From an uncultured virus (IMG/VR IMGVR_UViG_3300026484_000088) (lineage: Duplodnaviria; Heunggongvirae; Uroviricota; Caudoviricetes): 20,000 bases of DNA. Shown piece by piece: positions 1-20,000 of the stretch. The notes under the pieces were generated by a model. The model had not been told where the DNA came from. It saw only the letters and a program-made list of their open reading frames with translations, and searched no databases. Positions within the stretch are counted from its first letter, which is position 1. Each line of letters opens with the position of its first letter. The translations under genes were made by a program, and so were the position numbers. The stretch lies in the IMG/VR virus record IMGVR_UViG_3300026484_000088, one strand, 5' to 3'.

Positions 1-61
1 TGTAGTTAGTTTGAATGAATGGAGTAAAGCTCCAAGTAATAAGAAAATGATATTAGTTTAA
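1..61 (+). CDS. 3' end of an upstream ORF (…VVSLNEWSKAPSNKKMILV*), truncated by window edge
   Basis: Open frame from position 2 to TAA at 59-61, same strand as all neighbours. Confidence 0.5.
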   Translation, partial: VVSLNEWSKAPSNKKMILV

Positions 62-67
62 ATTAAT

Positions 68-102
68 AGACCTGAATAAGTCTTAAAACTATTCTAATTT
101 AA
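68..102 (+). promoter_or_regulatory. Pseudoknot-forming element / candidate phage RNAPII (middle) promoter, copy A
   Basis: AGAC-CT-GAATA-A-GTCT-TAAAAC-TATTC (68-94), then ATTTAA (97-102), SD and ATG 119; covarying second copy at 3011. Confidence 0.7.
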
Positions 103-118
103 ATTTAAAGGAATAAAG

Positions 119-871
119 ATGCAAGAATCTACTTTCAAATTATTAGCTTATCGATTAAATAAGATAGGCTATGATTTTAGTGATAGAAAAGAAACTCTTG
201 AGAGATATTTTACTAAATTAATATTTACTCAGGAGTCTTGGAGTCTTCAATATATTGCTACATTAATAGGTAAAAGATTATGTAAAGATTTTAAGATGGA
301 ATTACCTAATGATTTAGAAGTTGCTTATCAAGGAATTAGATTTCTTGAGATGTTACCAAAGAATTTAGTAGATTATAGAATAGGATATACTCCTGAAGGT
401 ACTCCATCAATAGTAATACTTCCTCAGCATTATTTCGAAGAAGAATTAGAGGAAAAAGCTATTGAACCAGAATTAGATCCAGAAGAGATAGAGTATTCTA
501 AGAGAGATTTAGTACATAAGAGATTTTGGCGAGGTAATATATTTAGTGTAGATATAGATAGTCTAGATATATTAAATAATGTAGTTTTTAAAATAGATAC
601 TAATATATCTATATTAGAAGACCCAAGTTATGATAAATCAGAACATAAACACTTGGAAAAGAGTAAAAGTAAAGTATTAGTAGATAAATATACTAATATA
701 AATAAATTTTACTTCAGACATTTCTACGATACAAGAGGTAGGATATACTCATGTGGGTATCATATTAACCCACAAGGTACTAAATATAAAAAAGCAATAC
801 TTACAATGATCAATAATACTCAATGGAACCAAGAAGATAAAGATAGTTTAAAAGACTTCTTAATAAATTAA
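119..871 (+). CDS. N4-like RNA polymerase II subunit 1 (gp15-like)
   Basis: T7-family DxRGRxY motif (FYDTRGRIYSCGYHINPQG) near the C-terminus of a 250-aa protein, followed by the catalytic subunit; SD AAGGA. Confidence 0.92.
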   Translation: MQESTFKLLAYRLNKIGYDFSDRKETLERYFTKLIFTQESWSLQYIATLIGKRLCKDFKMELPNDLEVAYQGIRFLEMLPKNLVDYRIGYTPEGTPSIVILPQHYFEEELEEKAIEPELDPEEIEYSKRDLVHKRFWRGNIFSVDIDSLDILNNVVFKIDTNISILEDPSYDKSEHKHLEKSKSKVLVDKYTNINKFYFRHFYDTRGRIYSCGYHINPQGTKYKKAILTMINNTQWNQEDKDSLKDFLIN

Positions 872-887
872 ATATAAAGGATAAAAA

Positions 888-1871
888 ATGACATATAAAG
901 ATTTAACTAAAAATGAATGGATAGTAGTTAATATAGCAAACGAAGCAGGGTTTGACAAATTATTTTGGAATGATAGAGTAATTAAAGGTAAAGAGATAAT
1001 TAACTCTTATCTTAATGGTTCATTTAAACCAGAAAAAGATAATTACTTATTAATTAAAAGACTTAATGAAGTGAAAGAATTACTTGATGGTTCAAGTATT
1101 CAAGAACCTAACATTTATCTTGATGCTACTGCATCAGGATTACAAATATTATCAGCTATTAGTTTAGATTTAGAAGCAGGTTCTAAAGTAAACATAGGAA
1201 CTAAAGAAAGAAAAGATGTTTATTTAGAGACAGCTAAATTATTTAGTGATATGTTTGGTTTAGATATAGAAAGAGAACATATTAAGAAGCCATTAATGAC
1301 TTACTTCTATAACTCAAGAAAGAATATAGAAGACTATTTCGGAGAGGAAATGGCTGAAATGTTCTTCGAGATGATGGGAGAAGGTTTTAAAGGACCTCAA
1401 AAGGTATTAGATACAGTTAATAAATACTTTGAACCAAGAAAAGTATTTGAATATAACTTACCTGATATGAGAGTATCTATACCTATAGAAGTAAGTGTTA
1501 CTGAAGATCTTAAATTCAAAGAGATAGAAGTACCATTTACATATAAGGTTAATCAAGCAGATGAAAATCAATGGAGAGGTTTAGTACCTAATATTGTACA
1601 TAGTTTAGATGCATGGATATTAAGGTATGTGCTTAAATATTTGAATGAAAAAGAGATAATAGTACATACTATTCATGATTCATTCCAAGTACCAGTAAGT
1701 AAAGTTCCATATTTAATAAAAGCATATAAAGAAGCATTTATTACTATGGTTCAAGATGAATTATTCCCTAAGATAATGAAAGACTTATTTGAGGTAGAAA
1801 TAAACTATGATCTAGAAAGAAAAGAAGCAATGATACAAGCAATTAAAGAGAGTGAGTATATGCTCTCTTGA
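888..1871 (+). CDS. N4-like RNA polymerase II subunit 2 (gp16-like, catalytic)
   Basis: Motif A LDATASGLQ, motif B REHIKKPLMTYFY, PNIVHSLDA, motif C TIHDSF. Confidence 0.95.
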   Translation: MTYKDLTKNEWIVVNIANEAGFDKLFWNDRVIKGKEIINSYLNGSFKPEKDNYLLIKRLNEVKELLDGSSIQEPNIYLDATASGLQILSAISLDLEAGSKVNIGTKERKDVYLETAKLFSDMFGLDIEREHIKKPLMTYFYNSRKNIEDYFGEEMAEMFFEMMGEGFKGPQKVLDTVNKYFEPRKVFEYNLPDMRVSIPIEVSVTEDLKFKEIEVPFTYKVNQADENQWRGLVPNIVHSLDAWILRYVLKYLNEKEIIVHTIHDSFQVPVSKVPYLIKAYKEAFITMVQDELFPKIMKDLFEVEINYDLERKEAMIQAIKESEYMLS

Positions 1872-1936
1872 TTGTTTATTTTTATATATACTATATAGTA
1901 AGATTTTAAAGTTATCCTTATTTAAGGGTTTAACTA

Positions 1937-1965
1937 TTGATTTTATATAACAATTATGTTATACT
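1937..1965 (+). promoter_or_regulatory. Host sigma70-type promoter
   Basis: TTGATT (1937-1942), 17-nt spacer, TG-n-TATACT extended -10 (1960-1965), upstream of AAGGAG and ATG 2003. Confidence 0.7.
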
Positions 1966-2002
1966 ATTATAACAATAAAGTTATACAATTTAAGGAGATA
2001 AA

Positions 2003-2422
2003 ATGAGAGATTTTAGTATGCCAATAAATATTGTTAATATAGAAACAGGAGAGATTGAAACACATCAAGCTTATGTTAAAGAGAATAGTAAAAGATATGT
2101 TAAATCAGGATTAATTAAAATATATCCAGAAGTATTAGAAAGTAAATATGTTAAATATATTAAATATTTAATTAATACTATTAATACTACTGGTTCAATA
2201 GAGATAATTTGGAATGATGTATTTAAAGATACAGAAATAAGTTATATGCAAATTTCAAGAATTAAAAAACAATGGTTAAAAGAAAATATTATATATTCTA
2301 AAGATAAATTTAGAGTATATGTAAATCCATATACTATATTAAGACAAACTACTTTTAGTGAACAAATACAAGATCAAATTAAATGGGATTATTTAGTTGG
2401 ATCCAGAGAAATTAATGTATAG
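2003..2422 (+). CDS. RepL-like / winged-helix DNA-binding protein
   Basis: N-terminal IVNIETGEI, helix-turn-helix-like ISYMQISRIKKQW and wing motif VYVNPY resemble RepL-type proteins; SD AAGGAG. Confidence 0.5.
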   Translation: MRDFSMPINIVNIETGEIETHQAYVKENSKRYVKSGLIKIYPEVLESKYVKYIKYLINTINTTGSIEIIWNDVFKDTEISYMQISRIKKQWLKENIIYSKDKFRVYVNPYTILRQTTFSEQIQDQIKWDYLVGSREINV

Positions 2423-2442
2423 TTTTTCTTTTTCTTTTTTCT

Positions 2443-2465
2443 TCTCGCTCGCAAGTCTCGCTCGA
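2443..2465 (-). repeat. TCTCGCTCG direct repeat; minus-strand hairpin with tandem G.A pairs
   Basis: TCTCGCTCG at 2443-2451 and 2456-2464, after a pyrimidine tract (2423-2446); four CpG in a CpG-poor sequence. Confidence 0.7.
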
Positions 2466-2545
2466 TCTGTTTTATGAATAAAATAAATATATAGGTAAAG
2501 ATACTATATACTTGTTTTGTGAAATTTTTAAGTAAAGGAGAAAAA

Positions 2546-2905
2546 ATGAATAATATTAATTTATTATTATGTGAATTGATTGGAGGAGGTTATTTAGACT
2601 GGAAAAAATTAGATGAATATATTGATGCATATCAAGTAGAACCAGAAGATATAATACAAGAAATTAGAGATGTTAATGGAGAAGATTATAAAATAACATT
2701 TAATGATTTAATGTATATTACTTTATACTTAGGTTTTTATAATATGCGAGAATATATTCTACAAGTTATAAAAGAAAATGAATGGAATATAAAAGATGAA
2801 ATAAAAAATTGGATAGAAAATATGGAATTTAACTGTTTTGTGAACTACTTAGATAGTTTTATACAAACACCTGTATTTAGTGAATATGATATATGGAAGA
2901 ATTAA
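2546..2905 (+). CDS. Hypothetical acidic protein, possibly frameshifted near its 3' end
   Basis: AAGGAG precedes ATG 2546 (preferred to GTG 2519); a coding-like frame continues 2893-2991. Confidence 0.7.
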   Translation: MNNINLLLCELIGGGYLDWKKLDEYIDAYQVEPEDIIQEIRDVNGEDYKITFNDLMYITLYLGFYNMREYILQVIKENEWNIKDEIKNWIENMEFNCFVNYLDSFIQTPVFSEYDIWKN

Positions 2906-2958
2906 CAAAGACTGAAAAGAATGTAGCAAGATTTATTGCTGATGTATGGAAAGAGATT

Positions 2959-2991
2959 AGACCTAAGGATGTCTTTAAAAGCCAAATTTAA
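2959..2991 (+). promoter_or_regulatory. Degenerate copy B of the pseudoknot element
   Basis: AGAC-CT-AAGGA-T-GTCT-TTAAAAG-CC then ATTTAA; stem 1 intact, stem 2 mostly lost. Confidence 0.45.
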
Positions 2992-3010
2992 CATAATAAG
3001 ATAAAATTAG

Positions 3011-3045
3011 TTTCCTGAGTATGAAGTAAAACTACTCAAATTTAA
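3011..3045 (+). promoter_or_regulatory. Pseudoknot-forming element / candidate RNAPII promoter, copy C
   Basis: TTTC-CT-GAGTA-T-GAAG-TAAAAC-TACTC (3011-3037), ATTTAA at the same offset as copy A, SD and ATG 3062. Confidence 0.7.
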
Positions 3046-3061
3046 AATTAAAGGTAATAAA

Positions 3062-3229
3062 ATGAAATTATATTATATAGAGCCAGAAAGAAAAGAAGCT
3101 GTATGTATAGTAACAAAAGCAGTAAATATAGCTAAACTTGTAGCTGAAGAGTTAGGTTTAGTTAAAGTATATGAAAATTTGTTTTATGAATATAGAATAA
3201 ATCACGAAGAAAAGGTATTAGTGTTATGA
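3062..3229 (+). CDS. Small hypothetical protein, 55 aa (MKLYYIEPERKEAVC…EEKVLVL), not in ORF track
   Basis: AAAGG SD, open frame, stop overlaps next start (ATGA 3226-3229). Confidence 0.75.
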   Translation: MKLYYIEPERKEAVCIVTKAVNIAKLVAEELGLVKVYENLFYEYRINHEEKVLVL

Positions 3230-3540
3230 AGTTATTAAATAAAAAAATTGATAATACTATCTATCAATTTAGAGGGAAAATAGCTAAATTTAGAAATGTA
3301 GGATTAAAAAGGATTGTACTATTTACAAATATACAAATATGGTCAGATAAGAACCAGAAATGGGAAGATTTTAGAGACCATATGTGGTGTGATAATAGGA
3401 TAAAAAATAAAAGATGGCAAGGCAAAGAAATTACATTTAAAGGACAAAAATATACTTATACTAATAGTATAGGTAAAACTCAAGAAGCTGTTGATATTAA
3501 ATATCCTCAATTACAATCAGTAATTAAAGGTAAAAAATGA
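3226..3540 (+). CDS. Hypothetical basic beta-rich protein (possible OB-fold)
   Basis: ATGA coupling at both ends; DHMW motif, basic composition. Confidence 0.7.
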   Translation: MKLLNKKIDNTIYQFRGKIAKFRNVGLKRIVLFTNIQIWSDKNQKWEDFRDHMWCDNRIKNKRWQGKEITFKGQKYTYTNSIGKTQEAVDIKYPQLQSVIKGKK

Positions 3541-3983
3541 AAACAATAAAAGATTATAAGGTATTAGATAATACTTTTTTAGTGATTACAGATGAAAGTC
3601 TTATAAGTTTAGATGAATTATATCCTTATGATATGGTTCAAATAAAAAAAAGTAAAAAGAAATTATCTAAAAAAGAATTTAATGCTTTTATAGATGAGAA
3701 TTGGAAAAAGATAAAAGTTAAATATACAAATATTATTGTTATTGGTTCAGAGTTATTTAAATTCTTTACAAAAATAAAGAAAGCAGGTAATTATCAAACA
3801 GAAATGTATAGTTATGATGGTGTAACTGTTTTACAAGGCATTAAATATCATAATTCTTGGTTAGAAAAAAATAAATATTTATATGAAATATCACAAGATA
3901 CTATAAATAGATATTTAAAAGGTAAAAAACCAGTAAGAATATGGAATTATATAGATCCAGATAAAATATCTTATTATTTATAA
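3537..3983 (+). CDS. Probable N-terminal domain of the N4-type DNA polymerase, encoded as a separate gene
   Basis: KKK…IIVIGSELFKFFTKIKKA resembles the N-terminal region of N4-like DNA polymerases; next ORF starts directly at the exonuclease domain. Confidence 0.55.
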   Translation: MKTIKDYKVLDNTFLVITDESLISLDELYPYDMVQIKKSKKKLSKKEFNAFIDENWKKIKVKYTNIIVIGSELFKFFTKIKKAGNYQTEMYSYDGVTVLQGIKYHNSWLEKNKYLYEISQDTINRYLKGKKPVRIWNYIDPDKISYYL

Positions 3984-3997
3984 ATAAAGGAAATATA

Positions 3998-5148
3998 ATG
4001 AAACATGAGTATGAATTTAAAAACTTACTAAATAAAGTAAAATCTAATTTTATAGTAATAGATTTAGAGACATTAGGTGTTAGAGCAGAAAACGCTAAAA
4101 TATATAGTATATCTATTACTTCTGTAATAGATAAAAATACTATTACATTCTTATATAAACCTTGGATGAAAGATCAATTAAAAGAATTTTTAAAAGATAA
4201 ACATATTGTATTTCATAATGCATTATTTGATCTAAAAATTCTAATTACTAATTTATTTATGAATAGTAATAGAGATTTAGGTGGAATGAGAGATGGTATT
4301 ATCTTTCTCAAAGAAAATGTAAAAATAGATGATACTATGCTTATGATATATCATTGTAACAATAATACTCAAGGCAACGAATTAAGTTTAAAATTTAATG
4401 CTTTAAAATATACAGGTGTGTATGCTATTGATGTAACTGATATAGCTGAAGCTTTAGATAAAGGAATACTTAATGAAAAACAGATACTAGAATATAATGC
4501 TATAGATACTATAGCTACTGTATTATTATATGAAGAATATTTACCAAAGATAAAGGAAGAAGATGTAAGATTAATATATAGTAAAAGTATTGAATCTATT
4601 TATTATTTAATTGAAACTATGATAGTTGGTTTACCATTAGATAAATATAGATTATTAGAGGTAGAAAAGCAGTTAAAAGATGAATTAGATATATTAAATA
4701 ATACTTTAAAATTTTATATAGATGATTCATTCAATCCTGGTTCAAGTAAACAATTAAGTAAATTACTTTATGAAGTATTTGATTTACCTATTTTAGAAAA
4801 AACAGAATCAGGACAACCAGCTACAGGTGGAGATATTTTAAAGACACTTTTAAATTATACTGATGATCCAGATAAACAAAAAGTACTTACTTCTATAAAA
4901 GATTGGAAAGATGTTCAGAAAATACTTACTGGATTTATCGAACCATTTAAGAAATATTATTTTAGTAGGAGTAATACTTACTGGCTCACAGGTAATCAGA
5001 GGCTTGGAGGAACAAAATCAGGTAGATTAAGTAGTAATGAACCTAATTTAGCTAATTTACCTTCTAACAGTAAATACGGTAAGTTAATTAAGAGTATTTT
5101 TCAAGCACCAGATGGTTGGTTATTCTGTGGATCAGATTTTGCAGCCCT
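3998..5148 (+). CDS. DNA polymerase family A, exon 1 (3'-5' exonuclease, thumb, start of motif A)
   Basis: ExoI DLET, ExoII FHNALFDL, ExoIII YNAID, GTKSGRLSSNEPNLANLP, motif A SDFAAL cut by the intron. Confidence 0.95.
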
Positions 5149-5257
5149 TAACATATCGGGGGTCCTAAATAGAAATATTTAGGTAATAATGGTATCTAAT
5201 TCAGGGAAAGCTAAGTCGTAAGATATGCTAATCCTGAGCCAAGACTTAAATTCCTTA

Positions 5258-5286
5258 TTGACTTCTATCCTTTTTTAGTATATAAT
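5258..5286 (+). promoter_or_regulatory. Sigma70-type promoter inside the intron driving the homing endonuclease
   Basis: TTGACT (5258-5263), 17 nt, TATAAT (5281-5286); AAGGA SD before ATG 5320. Confidence 0.8.
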
Positions 5287-5319
5287 CATAATTGATTACA
5301 CTAATACAAAGGATAGATA

Positions 5320-5862
5320 ATGATAGAAAAGTTAATTAATGGTTATAATGGTATATATAAAATAGATGATAAAGGTAATGTATATACTAAATATAAACCT
5401 AAAACAGGTAAAATATGGGATAAATGGACTAAATTAAAATGGGTTTTAGATAAACATATTGGTTATTATTTAGTTACATTAGTGCATCCAATAACTAAAA
5501 AAAGAACTAATAAGTTTATTCATAGACTTTTAATGGAATCTTTTGTTCCTAATCCAGATCCTAAAAAATATAAGCATGTAAATCATATTGATGGTAATAA
5601 AGAAAACAATCAATTAAATAATCTTGAATGGGTAACCCCAAAAGAAAATACAAGACATGCTATTAAATTAGGTTTAAATAAACCAGGTGAAGCAAGTAAA
5701 AAAGCTATAAAACAAATAGACTTAAATACTGGTGATGTTATTGCTGAATTTGAATCAGCAAGAGAAGCAAATAGACTTACTGGAATTGCTCACCAAAATA
5801 TTAGTAAAGTTTTACGAGGTTTACGAAAACATGCTGGAGGATATTTTTGGGAATTTAAGTAA
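5320..5862 (+). CDS. Intron-encoded HNH homing endonuclease (NUMOD4-HNH-NUMOD1, I-HmuI-like architecture)
   Basis: IHRL, HVNHIDGNKENNQLNNLEWVTPKENTRHA, C-terminal FESAREANRLTG HTH; looped out of stem ACTTAAATTCC/GGAATTTAAGT. Confidence 0.93.
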   Translation: MIEKLINGYNGIYKIDDKGNVYTKYKPKTGKIWDKWTKLKWVLDKHIGYYLVTLVHPITKKRTNKFIHRLLMESFVPNPDPKKYKHVNHIDGNKENNQLNNLEWVTPKENTRHAIKLGLNKPGEASKKAIKQIDLNTGDVIAEFESAREANRLTGIAHQNISKVLRGLRKHAGGYFWEFK

Positions 5863-6014
5863 GGTGCAGAGACTATCTCCGTACGGAGAGTAGGGAAGTA
5901 AGTGATTGACTTCTCGAAACGGTACCTATCTTAACAGGTAAAGCTGAAGATAAAGATATAGTCCGACACTCCAAGAAATTGGAGAGACAGAGTAGCGTCT
6001 GTCGTAACTGATTG

Positions 6015-6825
6015 CGAAGATCGTATAGTTGCTAACTTAAGTAATGATCCTATGAAAATAGGTGTATTTACTAAAGGTATTGATGGACATAGTCTAAATG
6101 CAGCAGGTTACTTTAAAGAAGAATTAGAATCTCGTGGAATATTTATAGATATGAATGATCCAGAGAGTATAAATTCTGTAAAGAAATTAGCTAAAGATTT
6201 AAGACAAGAAAGTAAGACATATACCTTTGGAATGAATTACGGTCAAGAAGCTCCTGGAATGGCTAAAAGTCAAGGTATTCCATTAGAAAAAGCAGAGAAA
6301 ATAGTAGAAGGTTATAAAAATACTTATAGAGTAATGATTGAATGGAATGAAAGTAATAAAAAATTTATGAATGAAAATGGATATGTTAGAGGTTGTTGGG
6401 GACATAAAATTAAAACACCTTTAATAAAAATGTCTATTATTAATTCAAGAATTACTCCATCAAATATAAAAGCTGAATTTAGAACAGCCAATAATGCTAT
6501 TACTCAAAGTTATGGAATACTTACTACTATTGCTGGTTCAAGGTTTCAAGATTTATTAGAGAAATCACCATATAAATATGATGTATTTTTAATAAATCAA
6601 ATTCATGATGCTATATATTTATTAGTTAAAAATGATCCAGAAGTAGTAAAATGGGTTAATAATAATTTAATAAATACTATGTGTATGATGGATGAACCAA
6701 GATTAATAGATGCTCCTGTAAAATTAGAAGCAGAATTAGATATTGGAAAATCTTGGGATAAACAAGTAACTCTAAAAAATAATATTTCTATTAAAGAAAT
6801 AGAAAAACAATTAAACACTTTTTAA
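6015..6825 (+). CDS. DNA polymerase family A, exon 2 (spliced product 653 aa)
   Basis: EDRIVA completes motif A; motif B RQESKTYTFGMNYG; motif C QIHDAIY. Confidence 0.95.
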
Positions 6826-18796: not shown

Positions 18797-20000
18797 ATGC
18801 AAGAAGAAATAAAAAGTTATGAATATAATCCTACACAAGAAAAAATGGTTAAAATTCTACAAAATAAGAACCAGACTAAAGAAGCTTTATTCTTTAGAGT
18901 ATTAAGTGCTTATTACTTTAGTAAAATAGCAGCTAATATGAGAACTTTTATTGATATAAAAGATGTGTTTGGAATTATTCCTGTAAATACTTATGCAGTT
19001 ATATTAGCAACATCAGGTGCAGGTAAAGGAAAATCTATAAATATTATAGAGAATGATATTTTAAAAGGATTTAAAGACAAATTTATTAAAGAGGTATTAC
19101 CAACACAAGTAGAAAAGAACTTAGCTAAAATCGCTTCAGAAAGAGCAAGTATTGCAGGTTTGGATCCAGATGAAGTATATCAGAATTTAATTAGAGAATA
19201 TAAAGGTACAGGACCATTTTTATTTAACTTTGATGGTGGTACAGCAGCAGCTATTAAACAATTAAGACATAAATTATTATTAGCAGGTTTAGGTGCTATG
19301 AATCTAGAAATGGATGAGGTAGGAGCTAATTTATCATCTAATATAGATATGCTTAATGTATTTATTGAATTATATGATGTAGGTAGAGTAAAACCTAAAA
19401 TTACTAAAAATACTCAAGAAAATAAAAGAAATGAATCTATAGATGGTATTACTCCAGCTAATGTATTATTATTTGGTACTCCAAGTAAATTATTAGATGG
19501 TGGAAAGACTGAACAAGAATTTTATAGTCTTTTAGATATGGGATATGCAAGGAGAATGTTATTTGCTTATATGCCTAAAATATCTAAAGAGAAATTATCA
19601 GCTAAAGAGAAATTGGATATGTTAAGAGATAAGTCTTCTGGTTTATTTATAGAAACTCTATATAAACATTTCGAGAAATTAGCTATTGATACTAATATAA
19701 ATAAGAAGTTATTCGTTAGAGATGATTATTTAATTAAATTGTTAGAGTATCAAGCTTATTGTGAAGAGAGAGCAGAAGCTTTAAAAGAACATCAAGAAAT
19801 GGAAAAAGCTGAAATTATGCATAGATATTTTAGAGCATTAAAACTTTCAGGAGCGTATGCTTTTATAGAAGAATCAGAAGAAGTTAAGTTAGAACATTTA
19901 CAACAAGCTATTAAATTAGTAGAAGATAGTGGTGTAGCTTTTAGAAATATTCTTAAAAGAGAGAAAACTTATGTTAAATTAGCTAAATATGTAGCAGAAT
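18797..20000 (+). CDS. N4 gp43-like primase-associated P-loop protein, truncated by window edge
   Basis: AAGGAG SD; IPVNTYAVILATSGAGKGKS, LEMDEVGANL, LYDVG, LLFGTPSKLLDG, GYARR. Confidence 0.88.
   Translation, partial: MQEEIKSYEYNPTQEKMVKILQNKNQTKEALFFRVLSAYYFSKIAANMRTFIDIKDVFGIIPVNTYAVILATSGAGKGKSINIIENDILKGFKDKFIKEVLPTQVEKNLAKIASERASIAGLDPDEVYQNLIREYKGTGPFLFNFDGGTAAAIKQLRHKLLLAGLGAMNLEMDEVGANLSSNIDMLNVFIELYDVGRVKPKITKNTQENKRNESIDGITPANVLLFGTPSKLLDGGKTEQEFYSLLDMGYARRMLFAYMPKISKEKLSAKEKLDMLRDKSSGLFIETLYKHFEKLAIDTNINKKLFVRDDYLIKLLEYQAYCEERAEALKEHQEMEKAEIMHRYFRALKLSGAYAFIEESEEVKLEHLQQAIKLVEDSGVAFRNILKREKTYVKLAKYVAE

Follow-up and report, generated by a model that had tools for sequence, protein, structure and literature searches.

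Several small RNA folds and phage control elements resemble the one described here, a 27-nucleotide (nt) intergenic signal in a 20,000-nt stretch of DNA (the window) that forms the last 20 kb of the 69,938-nt virus record IMGVR_UViG_3300026484_000088, an N4-like phage genome of 25% GC. In the Rfam family GP20-b (RF03003; Weinberg et al., 2017, PMC5737381), model positions 1–28 align to the whole element, hereafter the knot, and three knot loci (L080, L104 and L122) score above the gathering threshold (40.8–41.8 bits vs 36.2), the second stem of the knot (S2) being the first stem of the model. However, GP20-b has a downstream hairpin and tail of its own and stands before scaffold (GP20) genes, whereas the window copies have neither, and the knot module stands alone in many other contexts. 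GP20-b gave no match to the window copies at E-values up to 10, and no hairpin follows any of the three copies (A–C, listed below).

Coremin is an exonuclease-resistant RNA (xrRNA) motif of plant and other eukaryotic RNA viruses. The AAA and CU of its spacer are essential for stalling of Xrn1 (PMC6546385), its natural CGAGUAA heptaloop stalls this enzyme, with an octaloop exception also described (PMC10520033), and a Watson-Crick pseudoknot variant exists (PMC10321173). A different, larger class of xrRNA is treated in PMC12397905. Like coremin, the knot has a first stem (S1) of 4 bp, a loop that starts with a pyrimidine and a spacer made of two variable bases, AAA and CU; in the Watson-Crick variant the loop likewise pairs with the spacer end. 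The knot differs in its 8-nt loop with a 2-nt L1, in its 5-bp S2 and in having no second hairpin. Its loop reads Y-Y-N4-A-N, with U and not G at the second position, against a coremin consensus of YGAD/YGNNAD, and it occurs in DNA phages and prokaryotes. In the pistol ribozyme, too, a short stem with a loop pseudoknot is followed by a conserved AAA (A19-A20-A21) that makes A-minor contacts to the stem (PMC6101554), but the knot is without P2/P3 or a catalytic core and its pseudoknot partner directly follows the linker. No Rfam match to pistol was found in the window, where an unstructured A/U leader follows the knot.

Two phage systems must also be considered. The translational operator of T4/T2 gene 32 consists of an H-type pseudoknot with an unstructured A+U leader and a ribosome-binding site downstream of it (PMC3014915). 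The knot, in contrast, is not tied to a gene for single-stranded DNA-binding protein (SSB) and is also found before transfer RNAs (tRNAs). We take the stem and loop lengths of the operator to differ from those of the knot. The middle promoters of N4 and LUZ7 belong to the same phage family and share with the knot an AT-rich stretch nearby. The minimal promoter of N4 RNA polymerase II (RNAPII) is AT-rich and extends from -7 to +2 (PMC4496689), and LUZ7 middle promoters are GC-rich hairpins with a 3-4 nt loop about 15 bp before the start (PMC9163698); the accessible part of PMC7145618 gives no promoter consensus. Unlike these promoters, the knot is missing from N4 and LUZ7 1-50 kb, and many of the phages that have it lack RNAPII.

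The knot is not a member of GP20-b, coremin or pistol, and we infer by analogy that it may work like a small viral barrier knot. An Rfam search of window positions 1-4000 with E-values up to 10 returned only two chance matches, and among 20 viral and 20 cellular loci no family lay over the knot; in locus L112 manA ends at the knot start. The novelty that an Rfam match would have removed is partly reduced, as the module corresponds to the 5' half of GP20-b. The stand-alone phage motif was not found described in the literature, of which the supplements of Weinberg 2017 and Fremin 2023 (PMC10690425) were only partly covered.

The window carries the following copies.

68..94, plus strand: copy A, full 27-nt H-type pseudoknot, 29.6 bits
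2959..2985, plus strand: copy B, weak or decayed variant, 15.5 bits vs a background maximum of 13.6
3011..3037, plus strand: copy C, full pseudoknot, 30.3 bits, ahead of a 55-codon open reading frame (ORF)

Copy A is composed of AGAC (S1, 68-71), CT (L1), GAATA (S2, 74-78), A (the 1-nt L2), GTCT (S1 partner, 80-83), TAAAAC (L3) and TATTC (S2 partner, 90-94), and lies 6 nt past the stop of a 47-codon ORF. The parts of copy C are, in the same order, TTTC, CT, GAGTA, T, GAAG, TAAAAC and TACTC, with one T-G pair in S1; in the relatives L002 and L344 this stem is CTTC/GAAG. The first-pass annotation had described two copies of one geometry with compensated stems and invariant CT and TAAAAC linkers, and the sequences are as it claimed. 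It was also right that both are followed at one offset by ATTTAA, which begins 3 nt beyond the element, and by a start codon, 24 nt beyond its end (ATG at 119 and 3062), for RNAP1 (the gene for subunit 1 of an N4-like RNAPII) and the DNA polymerase operon. Copies A and C were the only full copies when the whole genome was scanned with a family model, the background maximum being taken from six Markov resamples. Training of the model used 167 27-mers from other genomes, which had themselves been collected with patterns designed on the window copies. A candidate at genome position 43377 (minus strand) had no rank in this model. A generic H-type descriptor gave far too many matches in this AT-rich genome to serve, and nested folding programs, which cannot score a pseudoknot, returned z-scores of -0.56 to 0.59.

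The third copy announced at 2959 holds up as a weak or decayed variant with S1 intact, but its score is barely above background. Two of its four outer S2 pairs are broken and it has the A22-G23 variant of the core. When the frame of ORF 2546 is corrected for a 2-nt insertion near 2889, copy B overlaps the last codons of that ORF, at the place where the homologous gene of a relative ends. L344 has a counterpart 52 nt before its own copy C, at the same spacing, in which both inner S2 pairs are exchanged on both sides and which overlaps the stop codon there. We treat copy B as a weak or decaying copy. The insertion in ORF 2546 (window 2546-2991) is relative to L001; among DNA contigs from four sequencing runs, the form without the 2 nt at 2889 was present in all, with exact window matches alongside it in two.

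Comparative evidence indicates that the repeated 27-nt signal is a conserved, covarying H-type pseudoknot and not a linear box. Three collection scans were made, each leaving another part of the element unspecified. With S1 left free (three pairs), 96 of 121 viral matches were fully paired, 24 had one mismatch and one failed; among 85 distinct 27-mers, pair 2-15 was Watson-Crick in 83 (shuffled mean 35.4, maximum 48) and pair 3-14 in 84 (shuffled mean 38.2, maximum 54). With S2 left free, 86 of 122 viral matches paired at all four outer positions, compared to about 2% by chance. When the outer stems were given and the loops left free, at least seven of ten core positions were present in 67 of 102 contexts and in 0 of 99 mirrored controls. 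The conserved core consists of Y5, Y6, A11, AAA at 19-21 and C22-U23 (or A22-G23). Among these 67 contexts pair 4-13 is C-G in 55, G-C in nine, T-A in one and unpaired in two; since this pair covaries, the 'GAC' of the supposed consensus is stem and not box. An alignment of 12 copies (11 distinct) from close relatives and a further N4-like phage shows pairing in 92.9% of cells, against at most 45.5% in slid controls, and changes on both sides in six of nine pairs; a shuffle test on this alignment was inflated by the relatedness of the sequences. In prokaryote genomes 60 of 94 matches were fully paired, in Saccharibacteria, Weissella, Campylobacter, Methanobrevibacter and others. Tandem pseudoknots, in which a second, variant knot directly adjoins the matched copy on one side or the other, were seen in L251, L284, other Saccharibacteria loci, L118 and L275.

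Single non-Watson-Crick pairs in S2, read on the coding strand of 93 distinct 27-mers, were G-U in 22 cases, A-C in one and other in one, so it is the coding strand that folds and not the template. H-type pseudoknots have a short first loop and a longer, A-rich third loop, which fits the coding strand here. The element is thus predicted to fold and act as mRNA. Of the earlier proposal that a fold and not a linear sequence is recognised, the fold stands, as both stems covary, and the link to a single-stranded DNA promoter is not supported.

Placement relative to genes is also informative. Of 135 copies with long flanks 122 were intergenic, 89 of them between same-strand genes. The distance past a sense stop codon, counted over 200 copies, was 0-3 nt in one, 4 nt in three, 5 nt in 24, 6 nt in 17 and 7 nt in 11. 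We infer that this edge at 5 nt marks how far the footprint of a ribosome reaches past the stop during termination, a limit to which a DNA signal need not conform. A stop lay at most 15 nt from 56 of 123 copies, where control positions between genes predicted 8.3, and 38 of the 56 lacked a start within 40 nt; away from stops, copies showed a slight excess near starts (20 vs 13.4 expected). A tRNA lies 3-12 nt downstream in 11 of 217 copies and an antisense tRNA nearby in none. In Arthrobacter phage Amigo the order is ssb stop, about 8 nt, knot, about 2 nt, tRNA-Gly, and in L257 a type III hammerhead ribozyme is directly downstream of the knot. L257 (minus strand) contains two type III hammerheads, at 1178-1232 and 1448-1502, 270 nt apart.

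We therefore favor, at a probability of roughly 0.4, a role for the knot as an exonuclease barrier at mRNA junctions, most likely capping the 3' end of the upstream message. The 3' cap is preferred because the known cuts at the tRNAs and the hammerhead leave an upstream piece with the knot at its 3' end. AAA would pack into the minor groove of S1, as in P1 of the pistol ribozyme, and lock the knot; RNase P, a ribozyme or an endonuclease acting in the A/U-rich stretch would cut 3' of it, and 3'-to-5' decay would then stall at the knot. In this phage, the knot would stabilize two messages separately, that of the small genes ahead of RNAP1 and the one ahead of the DNA polymerase operon. One rigid knot could serve in both directions. 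An RNA processing or stability element had been among the options of the first-pass annotation, and covariation, coding-strand folding and stop-codon placement make it our best reading.

Several observations weigh against this interpretation. The strand asymmetry is weaker in S1 (G-U 12, A-C 7 and other 26, of 143), related phages were deduplicated by flanking sequence only, and gene calls followed simple ORF rules. The edge at 5 nt may reflect only exclusion by terminating ribosomes together with genome compaction. An ATG occurs 10-40 nt downstream in 93 of 200 copies, compared to 21-30 of about 145 in shifted controls. In the window family (10 full copies) the downstream start is at a nearly fixed 22-25 nt, and the upstream stop lies at 5, 5, 5, 6, 7, 13, 17 or 33 nt, is missing or is more than 50 nt away; a fixed start distance with a varying stop distance points to the downstream leader. 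Three of 217 copies follow the 3' end of a tRNA at 0-2 nt, a place better suited to a 5' role, and several copies precede prophage integrases or scaffold genes far from any stop.

These points bear on the rival explanations at the RNA level. A 5'-to-3' barrier resembling the coremin xrRNA, which would stop RNase J or hinder RNase E scanning and so protect the leaders and genes of RNAP1 and the DNA polymerase operon, is possible but doubtful. The core likeness to coremin (4-bp hairpin, first loop base Y, spacer AAA and CU), the fixed start distance in the window family and the copies right after tRNA 3' ends and after manA all favor it, but coremin requires a second hairpin directly behind its spacer, and this hairpin is not enriched here (31 of 208 vs 41-62 at the control offsets). 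Moreover, Xrn1 is reported not to be stalled by ordinary frameshift pseudoknots (PMC10321173). A similarly low probability is given to a translation element, either a standby or enhancer site at which ribosomal protein S1 or the 30S subunit would serve the downstream ribosome-binding site, or a roadblock that keeps the ribosome terminating upstream from being coupled to the following gene. Standby sites that depend on S1 have this arrangement, a pseudoknot and then an unstructured A/U stretch and a Shine-Dalgarno sequence (SD), and H-type pseudoknots are bound by S1 (PMC7708055); the fixed ATG spacing, the G-poor stretch that follows the knot and the hard edge after stops are consistent with this. 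However, it does not account for the many stop-proximal copies with no start nearby or for those between or before tRNA genes, and the start-side excess far from stops is small. It is improbable, in our judgment, that a phage or host protein, or else a small ligand, binds at the knot, as in a gene 32-type operator or a mini-riboswitch. The core bases are strongly conserved, and in the T4 gene 32 operator a pseudoknot precedes UUAA(A) repeats in an A+U stretch that lacks structure and covers the ribosome-binding site (PMC3014915). Nevertheless, the genes downstream of the knot share no function across carriers (RNAP1, integrase, scaffold, primase, terminase-like, tRNA), the carriers span many bacterial phyla and archaea, and no alternative fold sequestering the SD was predicted for copies A or C. 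It is very unlikely that the knot replaces the hairpin of an intrinsic terminator: a U-tract (at least six T in 8 nt) follows 30 of 213 copies, compared to 3-7 further downstream, but neither full window copy has one and it is absent from most family copies. A recoding pseudoknot (readthrough or -1 frameshift) was rejected, as the 75 copies 4-10 nt past a stop showed no slippery site; the stop was TAA in 49 of them, and the median in-frame continuation was 12 codons.

A folded single-stranded DNA promoter read by an N4-type RNAPII, the promoter reading that the first-pass annotation had attached to the knot, is the least credible of these explanations. It could be defended because structured promoters exist in the phage family, as in the LUZ7 middle-promoter hairpins (PMC9163698), because RNAP1 has the knot ahead of it in the N4-like phage G040 and in the relatives L344 and L349 as well, and because the knot sits just 5' of a leader, where other early genes have a repeated linear motif. 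Yet RNAP1 of L002 and L004 has no knot ahead. A profile of RNAP2, the second RNAPII subunit (PHROG 2051), was searched in 49 records, comprising three seeds and 46 carriers of the 120 pattern loci, with longer contigs favored. It found no match in 44 of the 46 non-seed carriers (one of the others is N4-like and one has weaker matches in a 774-codon frame), nor in 14 of the 15 that are at least 90% complete. The best knot score in the whole N4 genome was 11.4 vs a resample maximum of 14.1, no knot above background was found in LUZ7 1-50 kb or in stretches of A5, ort11 and QDWS595, and none of the 16 plus-strand GACCTG sites in N4 1-50 kb fits the knot descriptor. Thus, the scan of N4 and other Schitoviridae that the first-pass annotation had proposed as a check gave it no support. 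Vent-phage genomes carry only 1-3 copies each (the two sequencing runs that best match the record are hydrothermal vent metagenomes). Folding on the template strand would turn the 22 G-U pairs into A-C, C4-G13 becomes G-C in nine of 67 contexts, and the knot keeps a minimum distance from upstream stop codons. The letters AGACCTG of copy A presumably resemble an N4 box, but with carriers mostly lacking RNAP2, no copy in N4 and the C-G pair of 'GAC' covarying, the proposed identity with the N4 middle-promoter consensus is not supported. Two sequence motifs do occur in N4 promoters (PMC9163698), but the letters GACCTG and TTTA were not found in the accessible part of the N4 review PMC4496689. The knot has no bearing on promoter recognition by N4 RNAPII.

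The leaders behind copies A and C, and the genes around them, are as follows.

1..61, plus strand: 3' end of the 47-codon ORF, which starts at genome position 49856; stop TAA at 59-61
95..118, plus strand: unstructured A/U-rich leader and SD of RNAP1
119..871, plus strand: N4-like RNAPII subunit 1 (RNAP1) gene, downstream of copy A (PHROG 2166, E 6.6e-20)
888-1871: second N4-like RNAPII subunit gene
3038..3061, plus strand: unstructured A/U-rich leader and SD of the 55-codon ORF
3062 (start), plus strand: 55-codon ORF, which heads the DNA polymerase operon

ATTTAA occurs 461 times in this genome, and an A/T run like it precedes the SD in eight of nine early-region leaders, only two of which have the knot. 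Positions 95-118 are a generic leader of the early genes of this phage and not a promoter box. A 12-nt linear motif is found four times on the plus strand, at genome positions 48457, 48695, 49422 and 49804 (window -1481 to -134), each time directly ahead of an early-gene leader, the last one before the 47-codon ORF; the pattern was drawn up after its four sites had been seen. The relatives L002, L004, L344 and L349 each have their own repeated linear motif at the same places. Judged from sequence, this motif is a better promoter candidate than the knot and would represent early promoters without the N4 hairpin. Transcription from the copy before the 47-codon ORF would read through copy A. A sigma-70 scan found 34 sites vs 34.1 in shuffles, and -10-like boxes just upstream of family copies were not enriched (9 of 209 vs 4-9).

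The best cultured matches of RNAP2 are schitoviruses, at 25-30% identity, and a 2918-codon ORF outside the window is probably the virion polymerase, as judged from its size and place. The ORFs downstream of 3062 lead to the pieces of a split DNA polymerase gene. The gene (window 5140-6070) is interrupted by an HNH endonuclease ORF at 5320-5862, the flanks of which presumably resemble a group I intron, and no Rfam match was found over these flanks. The same insertion is carried by L002, and at the start of L349 there is an unsplit frame of 799 codons. The N-terminal part of the polymerase (window 3537-5182) is divided into two ORFs, 3537-3983 and 3998-5182, and is a single 541-codon ORF in L002. 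A primase-like ORF at the window end (18800-20000) recurs at the genome start (219-2054), and its presence at both ends indicates that the record is circularly permuted with an overlap.

The knot is found in many unrelated phages, temperate ones included, and in cellular genomes too. Among its cultured carriers are phages of Lactobacillus (Lj771), Staphylococcus, Bacillus (phage Page), Arthrobacter (Amigo), Roseobacter (SIO1) and Synechococcus as well as a crAss-like genome, and IMG/VR estimates for single patterns are about 460, 1400 and 520 stretches. In L013, L224, L247, L260 and L266, from Weissella and other Firmicutes, the knot stands 31-36 nt before genes resembling prophage integrases (judged by eye).

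A 27-nt fold with a conserved, putative tertiary core is therefore present in hundreds to thousands of phage contigs and has no stand-alone Rfam entry. Should the favored exonuclease barrier be correct, it would reveal a way in which phages adjust the stability of messages inside operons, and it would offer both a Watson-Crick model for the unsolved coremin fold and a very small RNA-stabilizing part. By analogy, the knot might even be a minimal stand-alone nuclease-blocking module, a coremin core without the second hairpin that serves as a portable two-way insulator, although we regard this as rather unlikely. If such a prokaryotic counterpart of xrRNAs were true, phages could give each gene in a long operon its own message lifetime.

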